From Paramecium tetraurelia (Eukaryota), in NCBI GenBank assembly GCA_000165425.1, contig CT868001.1, positions 124,001-188,000 of the forward strand: 64,000 nt of DNA, given 5' to 3'. Shown one piece after another: positions 17,849 through 24,614 of the stretch (position 1 is the first letter of the stretch; every line of letters begins with the position of its first letter). The notes beneath the pieces were generated by a model. The model saw only the letters and a program-made list of their open reading frames with translations. It was not told the DNA's origin and made no database searches. The translations under genes were made by a program, and so were the position numbers.

Positions 17849-18862
17849 TCATTCAGTTTTTATTTATTGCTGTTAGTGATATACTTATTCTAACATTGGT
17901 TAGAAATAATGTTTCCACAAAAAGGTGATATTGTAAGACGTTAAAGTTCCAGAATCAAGAGCCTTGAAAAAGTACAATTCTTTAAAGAAGTCTTCCTCAA
18001 TTTAATTTAGTTCATTTTTATTGACTCTTTTAATATTTTATTCACTTGGGAGGAATAATACAATTTCGGGCATTATTGATAGAACTTCTTATTTTATATC
18101 TTATAATAGATGATGTTGTTATTCATCCTTCTATATTTCAGTATTTTAAATAGACATGTCTACCTTCTCAGTTTAAAACTCATTTTTAATACACACTTGC
18201 TTCTTTTATGGGCTTTCAGTAGATTCTAAAAGCAAGGATAATTAATTTCTGAACTTTTTCATCTCGATAGAATAATTTTCTTCTGGCACCGAGCATATTT
18301 TTTCATACAGTTAGGAGAGCTTATGATAATGTTGCTTTTCAATAGAAATTATTGAACCTTATTTTGTATTACATAATTCAATTTATTTGAGTAGTTATTT
18401 AGATTCACTATCAATTTTCTAGAATTATTTTGTGTTTTAATTAATATAATTTAATTCTGTCAATTATGAAGCATGCTCCGAATCATAATTTGATTCTTGA
18501 GTCTCTTTATAGAACTTACAAAAATCAAAGTTATTCTGTATTCTGGTTAAAAACTATTAAATTAATGAATTATCGTATTTGTCTTTAAGTTTAAATGTTT
18601 TTTCAGATACCTCCTAGATAATCTATGAGAGTAATTCTTGACCTTTGAGTTAATGTAAACTCTTCCACAACTCCTAATTTGGATAACTTTGAATTGTTGC
18701 ACATCTTGAATTAACGCTTGGCTTTATTGAAACACATAATATGAAAGGATGAAATCCAATTTCGCGATCATTAAAGCATTGCCTTATCCAGCCCATTATT
18801 TTCTTTATCAAAAGCTTCTTTTGTTTCTCTAGTGTCCTTTTATCAGGTGTACTTAAACTCAT
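17849..18862 (-). CDS. Hypothetical protein
   Basis: ATG 18862 to TGA 17849, open frame under the ciliate code (MSLSTPDKRTLEKQKKLL...FLWKHYFQPMLEQVY...). Confidence 0.7.
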
Positions 18863-19972
18863 CTATGGATGAAAAATATTTAAATAATAATATTCTCTAT
18901 TATTAATTTAAATACTATTCTAAAAACATAATTTCAATCTTGAATCAATCACCTCTATTAATAATCTAAAATAAGAATTATTAAAGGTATAATATCTTAT
19001 CCAAATAGTAATAGAAACTAAAATACATTTAAATTTAGTGTGTATAATATATTAATAATAATAATAAAAACCTCGAATTAAATGAGTTATATACTATTCT
19101 TGCATTCACAGGTTGTCCTTGTCGTTGGTGGGATATATTTCTTCAATTTTGGTACAAGGGAACCATACAATTTGCTGTTCTTTGAAGTTGGCTTAATTAG
19201 GCTAAATTTTGATTCTACAATTATAAATTCAGTTTATTATATAATGAGATTCTGGGAGGTGGAGAAAAAAACATTAAGGAATTCTTTCGGCATTTATGCA
19301 AACATGTACATTTTCAATTATTTTGGTTCATATTTAAGTTGTATTTCTATTATTTCTAATATTGCGAAGTAAGTTTGGATTGTATTCTATAGTTAGTCGA
19401 TTTCTCTTCAGAACCTATTATATATTGAAATAGCAACGCTTATAATAAGCGATAAAGGTTAGATTAGAACTTGATATTAAATGATTGATAATTGGATGGC
19501 AAGGATGATTATTTAAATGTTAAGCGTAAATCAACAGCCAAAGAAATCTTTCCTTTTTTGAGCAAGAATTAATCAATTAAAATAAAATCATATATTCGAT
19601 TGATTAGGTTAACAGTGATTAAATTTCAGAACTTTTTTATTTACTCTGATTACTTAGGACTGTCAGAATCCACCAGAAATAATTTATATGAATGGGTGGT
19701 TGTTCTTAATTTATAAATCGATTTATTTTATGAGAGATCATGATCTTGAATTCTTCTTTATTGCTTACAATAGTTTAGACTATGCTTTAATTGGATGACA
19801 AATAAAATAATCTTTTTTCTATTCTAATTTTTTATATTTTATTAAATTACAAAACTTTGTGTTTACTTTATAAGTGTTGCTTAATTCAATTGATGTTAGA
19901 GAATGAAGGTATTACTTTAAAAGGAAGAAAAATGTTAAGCAAATTCAAAATTATTTAAAGTTAAATTCAATT

Positions 19973-20844
19973 ATGAATGTATTTAACAACAATTCTTCAG
20001 ATGAACTTCCTCAAAATCTAGAAGATCTTAAAGCCAATTCGGAATGGATACTAGGTATTTTTGAAGCAGGCAGAGGACCTCTGATTGGACCTATCATAAT
20101 TGCAGGTTGCTTTTGGCCAATCACGAATCATAATTACATTGTTAAATAATGTTCTTTATCACTCAATAAACAATTCTACTAAAATCAAGTTGAAAGTTCA
20201 GAAATAATTAGTAAACTTAAAGGCAAGGCATTGCAATTTGAAACAATCGAAATTAGCGCCCAAAAATTATCAACTAAGATCTTGGCGTATACTCCTTCTG
20301 ATGTAAATGAAATTAGTTTAAATTACACATTATAACTTATTAAAAATATACTGTCAAAAGGATACAAAATTATTGGTAGCAATTAGATATTTAATAGATA
20401 GAGTGTTATATTAATCCCATTGGTTTCAAGGAAAATTTGAATGAAGTTTTGAAAAAGGGTCTTGGCTTAGGAAATAATGACTTAAAATTTATTGTGGGAA
20501 TGCATTAAACAATAATTGCAGCCTAAATTGTGTCTTTGCAAGAAAGGAATACTCGATTGCTGCAAATATAATAAGATATTTATCCATCTGGATAAATGGG
20601 ATCGGGTTACCCTTCAGATGCTCTGACAAGAGAGTTTCTCTCTAAAGTCAGCATTCCTGTTTTTATTTATCCATAAGACATTAGATTTGCTTGGTAAACA
20701 GTAAGCGCTAGTCTTAAATAAAAAGCAATCAACATTGAATATTTATCCGAAGAGAATTGGACAAGATAAACAAAAGAACAATTCTTAGAAAACCCCTCTT
20801 TTTTAGAATATGGAGGATTACACTTTGAAAATTATTATTTATGA
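19973..20844 (+). CDS. RNase H2 subunit A-like protein, predicted catalytically inactive
   Basis: LGIFEAGRGPLIGP, VNEIS, GSGYPSD, IRFAWQT motifs. One 26-nt intron (20376-20401); 281 aa, uninterrupted. Confidence 0.88.
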
Positions 20845-20899
20845 TCTATCATGAAAATGGATTCTTAATTATTTAATCTATTTTTAATTATTAAATATT

Positions 20900-20906
20900 A
20901 AAAAAA
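20900..20906 (-). terminator. RNA polymerase III oligo(dT) terminator of the tRNA
   Basis: Run of 7 T on the minus strand immediately after the discriminator base. Confidence 0.75.
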
Positions 20907-20979
20907 GCAATTTGCGAGGATTCGAACCTCGGACCTTCGGATTTGGAATCCGGCGTGTTAACCACTTCACTACAAATTG
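20907..20979 (-). tRNA. trnW: tRNA-Trp, anticodon CCA
   Basis: Cloverleaf: CAATTTG/CAAATTG acceptor stem, D-loop with GG, anticodon loop TT-CCA-AA, T-arm CGAGG-TTCGAAT-CCTCG. Confidence 0.92.
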
Positions 20980-21011
20980 AATTTAAATTTTAGTAGAGTG
21001 TATAATTTATA

Positions 21012-22004
21012 ATGGAAATTAGAAACTTAATGGAAGATTAATAAATTAGAATAAACAAAATTTATTATTATAGATAATGTCTATTTTTGTAGAAAAATAA
21101 AAGAATTTTTAATGATTTTTTATAATTGATATCTTCTGAGCACAATTAAACGATATTGATAAGATCATTATTAAAATTACAGAGTTTAAAAATATGGAAA
21201 AATTCTCGTTGCATAAGAATCAAAGATATTTCTAAGATCATATAATCTGCCAAAATTTGAGGCATCAATTTCTATTGTTTCAAATGGTGATGTTTTTATT
21301 TAAGTTTACAAATAATTTATGAACTTTCAGTTAAAAGAAATCAAGTTAGATCAAAGAATATTAATAACTATTTTGAAAATAAAGAATAAACCCATCATAA
21401 AAAAAAGAGAATTGTTTTTAAATTAATAATTTTAGTAATTTATGAGAGTTCATTTGAATAAAAATTTATTAATGCTAATTAACTTCAGTTTCTTTAATAT
21501 AAAAAGATAGCAAGTTTACTACTTGAATTTGATACAATTTGAATTTGATTAAAAAAAGGGATATATGACATTGTAATTTCATCATCGTTGTAATCAAGAG
21601 TATCTGATGATGAAGGTAAAAGTGAAATTTCTTCAATTAGTATATAATAATAATTTGATTTTATTAATATTGAGTATATGGGATAAATCTGCAAGAGCTG
21701 TGAAAAAAGGGATATAGATAAAACTGAATTAATGATTGAATCATCCCCCCAACATTAAGAAATAAAATTTATTGAAGATTTTGAATTCATTAGTGGTTTA
21801 GATAAATTAGAATCATCAAAGAAAATGAGTATGCTCACCTTCCAAAATAAAAATAACAGTAGTAGTTACCCTCATGGAGATTCACTCTATCAAGGGTCTC
21901 TTTTCAGTGTTGTAACTCCTGATTTTAGTGCTTTTTCCTCAAATTTAGTTTAATGAATTGTCCATGCTGTCAGATAGCAATATTTGAATTGATCTATGGT
22001 ATGA
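21012..22004 (+). pseudogene. Probable pseudogene (or readthrough candidate) with several in-frame TGAs
   Basis: A single frame of 331 codons from ATG 21012 with coding-like D/E codon phasing. TGAs at about 21258, 21288, 21540, 21546, 21954 and 21990, with no obvious introns removing them. Confidence 0.45.
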
Positions 22005-22121
22005 TTTCTTACTTATATATTTAATATGATTTTTGTAATTATGTAATTGTTACAATGAAAATAATAGTAAATAACATAAAAATTATAATATATATTGTGA
22101 AAAAATGATGTACAATTAATT

Positions 22122-22844
22122 TTATTTAGGCAGATTTTTTTTTTTCACCATAAAATAGCTCCAGTTATTAATCTCAATCCCTAAAAAAAAAATAATGACA
22201 ATGAAGAACATATTTATAACATCTTCAAATATCAAAAATAAAAACTTCTGCCCAACCTTATAATTCAAAACCCAAAAGACTATTCTCAGAAGTGAAGAAA
22301 ATCCCATAGTTACAAGTATTTCTAGATGTCAGGCTCAACTGTTTTGATCAAGATGCAAATTTTGTTCTAAAAAAAATTCCTCATATAAATTTGAGGCAAA
22401 AAGGCACAAGCTTCAATGAATAGACTCATAGAAACAAATATTTGAACTGTAAAATAAATTTCGTCCTTCGTCCTATGTGTTCAATAAATAATAAGAATAT
22501 TGGGATAAGAGTTAGAGAAAAGCGTCGATCTTTTATTAAATGAAGACCAGTGTGTCTATGATAAAAATGAAAATGAGCTTACCTGAATTTGTAGAAAAGA
22601 TAAATGATATAAGCACTCAATGCAATAGAGAAGATCTACTCAATCCAAATCAAAAAGAATTTTAATAATCTGGTATCACCAATGTAAAGGTTTCACATCA
22701 AGGTTCCAATAAAATACATCATTAAGGTTTCTAAAGCCACTCCCCATTTATTCCTTTTCTCATTAATGCGTTTAATGAAAAAAGTAAGCCGCAGAATTTT
22801 ACATAAAGTGACCAAGTGTAAAAATTATCAATATAAAAATCCAT
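22122..22844 (-). pseudogene. ERD2/KDEL-receptor-related (PQ-loop) pseudogene
   Basis: WGVALETLMMYFIGTLM*, SLFIEACAFLPQIY, MGFSSLLRIVFW motifs. One intact intron, but several frameshifts and an in-frame TGA. Confidence 0.65.
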
Positions 22845-23599: not shown

Positions 23600-24614
23600 T
23601 CATTCTGGTGACTTATAGAAATTATTTAATGCATATAATCTAACTTAGCCTAATGTAACAAACATGCAAATGTTCCATGTGATGATTCTACCTGCATTTG
23701 CTGAGAATCCATTGTATAGATTTAACACTCCCTATTCATAATCGATTGAAATTTCTTACTTCGTTTTTTATGATGTTACTCACAACTGTTAAAACACCAA
23801 CATTTTGATTCATAACTCTAGTCTTAATCAAATCAACTGGCTATCCAACCACTGCTGCTATGAATCCTGCACAAGCACTTGAAGCAAAATGGCATGTTAA
23901 ACCTTCATGGAATAACCCGGTTTTAATTAGAGATTCCTTGATGTGATCAAAGGTGGCTAACTCAGCACAATTAATCACAGCATTTCTAATGATGTTTGGA
24001 GTTACTCCTCTCCAAAATCCGTGCAACCTTAAATTCATAAATATCTATTACCCATCTTGTTTGTAGATCTTAATGTATGCATCTGTCAAGTTCTTATAAC
24101 GACGTTAATCAGCTGGAAGATTACCATCGACCTAAAATCTCACCTTTATCACATCAAATGGACTTGCGATTGAGATACCAATTCCACCTGTGGCTAGACC
24201 TGCATAAATCTTTTTAGACAGGGGAGGATCACCTTTGAAATCTTTTCCACAGAAGAAATCACGCGTCTTTGATATTCAATAATTAATCCTTACAGGTTCA
24301 TACAATCCAATACGGATTGATGCAAACACTAATTGTCTCTGGATTCCTGCTGAAAGACCCTTGAACAAACTTGAAACTCCCTCTTCACCATAAATTTGTC
24401 GAGTTGTGTGTAACAATCCGTGATATCTGTACTTCCCATTCGCATCTGGCTTTTGGATTTAAAGACGCACCTTCTATTTTCAAATATCAATGTATAACAT
24501 TACAGCTGTATCAATAGGGATGGTTATAGCCTCTGCTACACTACCTGCAATACCACCTGTGATCATTTTCACCCAATCTGGCAAATCATTTATGCTCTTA
24601 TATTGTTTGCTCAT
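23600..24614 (-). CDS. Mitochondrial carrier, uncoupling-protein (UCP) type
   Basis: Three carrier signatures (PIDTAKVRLQ, PFDVIKVRFQ, PVDLIKTRVM) plus UCP-like GIQRQLVFASIRIGLYEP and PNIIRNAVINCAELATFD. Confidence 0.92.

Follow-up and report, generated by a model that had tools for sequence, protein, structure and literature searches.

A conserved RNase HII/H2A homologue of Paramecium tetraurelia predicted to have lost its catalytic metal site

The gene for protein A0BL27 of Paramecium tetraurelia is considered to be a real, transcribed gene for a catalytically inactive RNase HII/H2A pseudo-nuclease that is kept by purifying selection; the protein most likely acts without cleaving, and a probability of roughly 0.6 is assigned to this reading as a whole. 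Descent and fold make it a member of the RNase HII/H2A family, but judged by the catalytic tetrad that defines type 2 RNase H enzymes it is not one of them. Its database name, 'Ribonuclease', was assigned by rule and claims more than the sequence supports.

The gene lies in a window of 64,000 nucleotides, the whole stretch of DNA that was analysed, which is AT-rich (29% G+C) and has the character of ciliate nuclear DNA. When read in the ciliate code a first open frame begins at 19973 and is closed by the TGA at 20440, with another extending from 20404 to the final TGA; excision of one 26-nt GTA...TAG segment is the sole removal that joins both frames (Table 1). The spliced product of 281 aa is identical to the annotated P. 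tetraurelia protein GSPATT00029875001 (XP_001426642.1, A0BL27; 0/281 differences), and the coordinates, length, single intron and motifs quoted in the initial annotation are all correct, including the TTT at 20060-20062, which is codon 30 within GIFEAGRGP, and CYINPIG, which spans residues 136-142. No further copy of the gene is found in the 64-kb window by tblastn. The neighboring open frames contain no Pfam family above the cut-off and therefore give no context clue. A tRNA-Trp gene (anticodon CCA) is located at 20907-20979 on the opposite (-) strand, 62 bases downstream of the stop codon of the RNase H2A-like gene, and a tRNA-Ser (AGA) is present at 23928-24022 (-).

Table 1. Positions in the window of the gene, its diagnostic residues and its transcribed span
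Feature	Position	Strand	Remarks
Coding exon 1	19973..20375	+	residues 1-134 and first base of codon 135; PF01351 31.2 bits on exon 1 alone
Intron, GTA...TAG, 26 nt	20376..20401	+	only frame-joining removal; spliced product equals the annotated protein exactly
Coding exon 2	20402..20844	+	rest of codon 135 to residue 281, plus TGA stop (20842-20844)
Codon 30, TTT, Phe for first catalytic Asp (human D34 position)	20060..20062	+	column is D in 90/90 canonical proteins, F in 4/4 orthologues
E31-A-G-R-G35, catalytic Glu and GRG (33-35) kept	20063..20077	+	phmmer and MAFFT alignments
L64-N65-K66 in place of DSK, lysine kept	20162..20170	+	phmmer and MAFFT alignments
I-N139-P-I-G in place of VDTVG, Asn for third catalytic Asp	20410..20424	+	phmmer and MAFFT
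V166-G167, site of 5-residue deletion removing the KAD segment (fourth catalytic Asp)	20494..20499	+	both MAFFT alignments
G201-S-G-Y204-P-S-D207, GSGYPSD kept with junction-sensing tyrosine	20599..20619	+	phmmer and MAFFT alignments
C-terminal tail SFLEYGGLHFENYYL, residues 267-281	20797..20841	+	resembles canonical ciliate-type H2A tails; pLDDT below 50 for 268-281
Approximate transcribed span	19841..20858	+	read bins of runs X21-X23; 1018-nt contig of run X1

The Paramecium protein is a full-length RNase HII/H2A homologue both by Pfam and by fold. Its match to PF01351 (RNase_HII) spans the entire profile (positions 1-199 of 199) and scores 52.9 bits against a cut-off of 25.8, and three Paramecium orthologues score 52.9-60 bits; canonical proteins from Tetrahymena, Ichthyophthirius, Blepharisma and frog score 154.1, 130, 170.3 and 168.2 bits, respectively. 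The AlphaFold2 model, built from a 94-sequence alignment, has a mean pLDDT of 79.7 and is poor only at residues 1-10, 246-249 and 268-281. In the PDB, Foldseek ranks the A chains of RNase H2 from human and mouse first (E 4e-17 to 2e-15), ahead of archaeal RNase HII; all matches with E <= 0.001 (34/34) are RNase H2A, HII or HIII chains.

Within this fold one of the four DEDD carboxylates is present, and the pattern is the same in four species: the first Asp is replaced by F30, the Glu is kept as E31, the third Asp is replaced by N139, and the Asp of KAD is lost. N139 is presumably the counterpart of D107 in the Thermotoga maritima enzyme. The protein was aligned to mouse and human RNASEH2A by phmmer, and by MAFFT to one set of 12 and another of 90 canonical proteins; all three alignments agree with the initial annotation on the loss of the first catalytic Asp and of the Asp of VDTVG. 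The same annotation described DSK as absent, which holds for the Asp and Ser but not for the lysine, as K66 is kept in a column that is invariant in all 94 aligned sequences. KAD is missing, as had also been proposed; MAFFT places a 5-residue gap between V166 and G167, and phmmer with the human chain sets the KAD Asp opposite V166. With the mouse chain phmmer pairs D162 with this Asp, but only by shifting the next helix out of the AAS(I) register. The AlphaFold2 model features a strand at 163-166, three further residues and then a helix at 170-194, which puts D162 at the distal end of the strand; the carboxylate count is therefore taken as 1/4. A rebuilt acidic active site was also looked for; the alignments display no new acidic residue at or next to the lost carboxylate positions, the nearest being D162. 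Since only one of four metal-binding carboxylates is left, canonical two-metal hydrolysis is not available, and the protein is predicted to be unable to work as a nuclease by the known mechanism.

The GRG loop and the tyrosine of GSGYP sense the ribose 2'-OH at the RNA-DNA junction in complexes of the T. maritima enzyme. Both GRG and GSGYPSD had been described as retained, and residues 33-35 and 201-207 are intact, with the columns of G33-R34-G35 and Y204 invariant in the 94-sequence alignment. The 90 canonical sequences have 40 columns conserved at >=85%; all four Paramecium orthologues retain the canonical residue at 24 of these, including G28, E31, A32, G33-R34-G35, P36, G39, P40, K66 and N112 and, further along, R183, G201-S-G-Y-P205, D207, T210, R229 and W232. 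Sixteen columns are altered, including D30, D64, S65, R73, D139, K-A-D, S176 and K180, with three of the four carboxylates among them; as five of these near-invariant residues (D64, S65, R73, S176 and K180) are non-catalytic, the nucleic-acid surface is not simply preserved.

Database searches recovered orthologues from three other species of the Paramecium aurelia group. The orthologues of P. octaurelia, P. pentaurelia and P. primaurelia are each 281 aa in length with no indels, differ from P. tetraurelia at 10/281, 28/281 and 27/281 residues, respectively, and share with it F30, N139 and the KAD deletion. The orthologues are 90-96% identical; any two of the four differ at 7 to 35 residues, and 38/281 columns vary. 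Residues 25-60, which comprise the former active site and the GRG loop, contain one variable column in 36 versus 37 in 245 elsewhere, a difference that is not significant (Fisher p = 0.063). Median dS values in the S6 Table of PMC8354472 are 0.214 for tetraurelia-octaurelia, 0.597 for tetraurelia-pentaurelia, 0.609 for tetraurelia-primaurelia and 0.063 for pentaurelia-primaurelia. With 663.7 nonsynonymous sites counted in the P. tetraurelia coding sequence and one change allowed per differing residue, the minimum dN is 0.011-0.055; its ratio to the published median dS is 0.07-0.17 across six species pairs, which is a proxy for dN/dS based on genome-wide median dS rather than a gene-specific estimate. 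This proxy is far from neutrality, as an unconstrained frame at a dS of ~0.6 would differ at most positions. These comparisons indicate that the gene is held under purifying selection in at least four Paramecium aurelia species.

A contrast is provided by a second P. octaurelia copy, P0201 (CAD8198571.1), which is annotated as 129 aa and sits on the same 380-kb contig (380,280 bp) as the intact orthologue P0003. The middle of P0201 matches residues ~136-185 at 75% identity, and its tail corresponds nearly residue by residue to the DNA that follows, read in the +1-shifted frame; P0201 is therefore regarded as a frameshifted, decaying second copy. P0201 and P0003 share octaurelia-specific residues (KKSLGL, AAQTV), P0201 reads CYIYPNG where the intact gene has CYINPIG, and its features suggest a recent duplicate that is decaying. 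Taken with four 281-aa orthologues free of indels and the low proxy ratio, this frameshifted copy upholds the earlier suggestion that the gene is maintained by selection. A 69-aa fragment from a Logan assembly, P0125, is 93% identical to residues 1-69 and reads GIFEVGRGP, so that F30 is kept and A32 is replaced by Val; it ends where the P. tetraurelia gene has a TAA glutamine codon, and probably comes from yet another Paramecium species whose genes were predicted with the standard code. Database searches expected to cover the proteome of P. sonneborni (subclade B) gave no orthologue from it; an orthologue of the expected ~80% identity should share many words with the query, and P. sonneborni may lack the gene, have it unannotated or carry a far more divergent form. 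A metagenome scan with the protein gave 89 pattern matches, of which 0 were confirmed.

The gene is transcribed from the sense strand at a low level. Three oligo-dT, paired, stranded RNA runs with the same species label (X21-X23; 58-nt reads), about a third to two fifths of each of which was read, were mapped on 18500-22500. Reads cover the gene from ~19950 to 20800 (bins 19840 to 20911) as well as two neighboring genes, with 0 in intergenic bins; first mates lie on the minus strand for all pairs over the gene, which is on the plus strand, and are reversed on the minus-strand neighbor at 18500-18900, as a stranded library should show. Mean depth over six gene bins is ~4.3, 1.3 and 0.3 in the three runs, which is low and differs between samples. 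Relative to the upstream neighbor (18634-18901), depth on 19974-20777 falls from ~0.8 to 0.14 to 0.06 across X21-X23, which belong to a single study, with small counts. No split reads over the intron were found in these runs, which have 58-nt reads and low depth, and the intron is therefore supported by the annotation and the orthologous proteins. A 1018-nt contig from run X1 matches 19841-20858 with the intron kept, and the intergenic DNA on both sides is uncovered; that X1 is RNA is a guess, and the contig may represent an unspliced transcript, or else DNA with coverage lost at AT-rich sites. The gene id has 0 occurrences in the expression supplements of PMC3091696 (searchable files), PMC5485702 and PMC10711438, where other gene ids are used, and no link of the protein to autogamy, conjugation or RNA-guided DNA elimination was found in the accessible expression tables.

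The best blastp partners of the protein among 411 fetched proteins are H2A from Tetrahymena and ciliate-like sources (119-125 bits). The pattern W-x-[LM]-G-I...C-x-W-P-I is common to the Paramecium protein and ciliate H2A, with GCFWPITN in the former and CCIWPITN in Ichthyophthirius. Maximum-likelihood analysis of 33 sequences places the four orthologues close together (end branches 0.003-0.03), with a stem of 3.16 changes per column leading to them and a median end branch of 0.66; in a quick tree the stem is 3.67. The clade attaches outside all other eukaryotic H2A with support of 94/87, which is not strong, and a placement with Tetrahymena and Ichthyophthirius is not rejected by the AU test (p = 0.243). 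The outside placement is read as long-branch pull rather than as a sign of ancient origin. The branch pattern is that of a burst, or a long period, of change before the aurelia species split, and of strong constraint since. An ESM Atlas search with the Tetrahymena protein returned only broad eukaryotic RNase HII clusters. The Ichthyophthirius multifiliis protein XP_004029844.1 (P0178) is without ~40 residues between the DSK region and YIDTVG relative to Tetrahymena and is matched by Pfam in two stretches; this gap looks like a gene-model error.

The C-terminal extension of ~32 residues (250-281) is variable at 4/32 columns among the four orthologues. Its tail, modelled with pLDDT below 50, resembles canonical ciliate-type tails, which end in ...GYYTKKIGITRNFDL in Tetrahymena and in ...GAFMNKVGLTSDFIL and ...KSWISNLELNENFDL in two ciliate-like proteins; by eye, the terminal ENYYL and the upstream F-L...G-L of the Paramecium protein resemble RNFDL, SDFIL, ENFDL and EKFKL of the canonical proteins from Tetrahymena and ciliate-like sources. 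According to PMC3060506, the C-terminal extension of human RNASEH2A is the eukaryotic adaptation for binding H2B/H2C, with residues 284-299 contacting the B/C dimer, and deletion of 248-299 abolishes the trimer. In Paramecium, the kept 2'-OH-sensing elements and the ciliate-like tail would fit both ideas put forward in the initial annotation, binding without cutting or engagement of H2B/H2C. Selection is proposed to have kept the substrate-recognizing and partner-docking parts, namely the GRG loop, the lysine of DSK, the tyrosine of GSGYP and a eukaryote-type C-terminal tail, and it is this preservation that makes a non-cleaving mode the most likely one. The protein may occupy RNA:DNA hybrids or RNA-DNA junctions without cleavage, and/or take the place of the A subunit on H2B/H2C; it would then serve as a reader, as a protector or shield, or as a competitor or regulator of RNase H2 activity.

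Two other explanations of an intact but altered frame have to be weighed against this proposed non-cleaving role. The protein could still be a nuclease with a rebuilt or reduced active site, using for example E31, N139 and other side chains, or one metal. Retention of E31 and of all substrate-sensing motifs would suit such an enzyme, as would the position of the most conserved part among the orthologues, residues 25-60, around the former active site; against it, three of four carboxylates are gone (by Phe, by Asn and by deletion), the alignments offer no new acidic residue nearby, D162 being at the far end of its strand in the model, and the Foldseek match 3o3f is, by its entry title, T. maritima RNase H2 D107N with uncut substrate. 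A rebuilt site is therefore considered very improbable. Hardly any weight is given to a decaying, functionless gene copy that merely still looks intact, despite a very long stem (3.16 changes per column, where end branches have a median of 0.66), a Pfam score that is a third of the scores of canonical proteins, and a ciliate code in which only TGA is a stop, so that open frames survive more easily. P. tetraurelia differs from P. pentaurelia or P. primaurelia at only 27-28/281 residues with no indels at a median dS of ~0.6, transcripts come from the sense strand only, and a truly decayed copy, P0201, is at hand for comparison.

The remaining alternative concerns the gene's status in the genome. 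The initial annotation described a paralogue standing beside a DEDD-intact copy; no such Paramecium protein is found among the matches listed, an absence that is treated as a lead only. The protein could instead be the only RNase H2A-family gene of these Paramecium species, an orthologue of the Tetrahymena enzyme with a decayed active site, in which case Paramecium would lack RNase H2 activity or supply it some other way. A word-indexed search with the Paramecium protein returned only its own orthologue clusters as Paramecium rows among the 120 of 304 matches listed, and an exhaustive search of 50%-cluster representatives listed 150, of which 19 were identified by name; among these 19, Paramecium is represented by the frameshifted P0201 alone. 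The Ichthyophthirius protein was searched against a database expected to hold five Paramecium proteomes, with the 8000 candidates sharing most words scored; the best 120 of 7664 matches, all with E <= 1e-39, include two Tetrahymena proteins (46% identity), one from Blepharisma and 0 from Paramecium. No candidate for a canonical H2A of Paramecium type emerged when the fetched proteins were screened by composition and motif. The AU test, moreover, permits a place with Tetrahymena and Ichthyophthirius, where an orthologue is expected. A Paramecium protein just beyond the best 120 of 7664 would nevertheless be unseen, a canonical one could hide in another 50% cluster, and the general points made below, near-universal RNase H2 and a genome rich in whole-genome duplicates, also count against a single gene, which is regarded as unlikely. 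The best canonical match, P0007, was considered as an active Paramecium copy and judged unlikely to be one, because it is a full-length call from the same source as the Paramecium-like P0125, which stops at a TAA glutamine codon.

Almost all eukaryotes are, to our knowledge, equipped with RNase H2, and many gene copies from whole-genome duplications persist in Paramecium. Given how widespread RNase H2 is, the existence of an active RNase H2A copy in Paramecium is held to be quite probable. It is a more speculative proposition, and a rather doubtful one, that the aurelia species are without any DEDD-intact RNase H2A and that the enzyme has become a non-cutting reader of hybrids or ribonucleotides which still sits on H2B/H2C; if so, ribonucleotides would have to be removed by another route, and an organism with RNA-guided genome rearrangement would possess a natural 'dead RNase H' sensor. 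Loss of a near-universal repair nuclease would be a much larger finding than one more dead paralogue in a duplicate-rich genome, which would be of interest mainly to the RNase H2 and ciliate fields. Interest in the protein is moderate as it stands and would be high if it were the only H2A in the genus. A natural RNase H2A that lacks the metal site and keeps its 2'-OH-sensing parts would be a useful probe for roles of RNase H2 beyond cutting, such as recognition of hybrids and ribonucleotides, competition for H2B/H2C and PCNA-linked sites, and regulation of an active copy. No report of an RNase H2A pseudo-enzyme, or of RNase H2 in Paramecium, was found in the open full text of PMC and bioRxiv.

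Among characterized proteins, human and mouse RNASEH2A (PDB 3puf, 3p5j, 3p56, 3kio) display the same fold (Foldseek E ~1e-16, TM ~0.7), are alignable over residues 25-248, and share with the Paramecium protein GRG, the lysine of DSK, GSGYPSD and a C-terminal extension beyond the HII core. Identity to them is however ~21-27%, and the Paramecium protein is without the first, third and fourth catalytic carboxylates, has a KAD loop that is 5 residues shorter and carries an extension of ~32 residues compared to ~52. The H2A proteins of Tetrahymena (P0300 and P0301) and Ichthyophthirius (P0178), with which it has its best blastp matches, the W-x-[LM]-G-I...C-x-W-P-I pattern and a similar C-terminal end in common, represent canonical ciliate enzymes; these keep D-E-D-D, DSK and KAD and score 130-154 bits with PF01351, whereas the Paramecium clade scores 53-60 bits and, unlike them, has a stem about five times the median end branch. 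Catalytically dead enzyme paralogues are common in general, as reviews and individual examples describe. The trypanosomatid AdoMetDC prozyme and the DHS paralogue are dead homologues kept by selection and would be a possible model if an active H2A coexists; they belong to another enzyme family, in which the active enzyme is activated through pairing with its dead copy, and neither a partner nor an active copy was found for the Paramecium protein among the matches listed.

A further comparison is with laboratory mutants. Catalytically dead RNase H2/HII mutants, which are used to trap substrate, bind it without cutting, as an entry title also states. In human 3p56, with Ala at both Asp positions, and in T. 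maritima D107N (3o3f), the carboxylates are lost and the recognition apparatus is intact; the Paramecium protein has an Asp-to-Asn change like that in the 3o3f title and is also substituted where the 3p56 chain has Ala. Those proteins are engineered point mutants of active enzymes, whereas the Paramecium protein is natural, appears to be under selection, and has many further changes.
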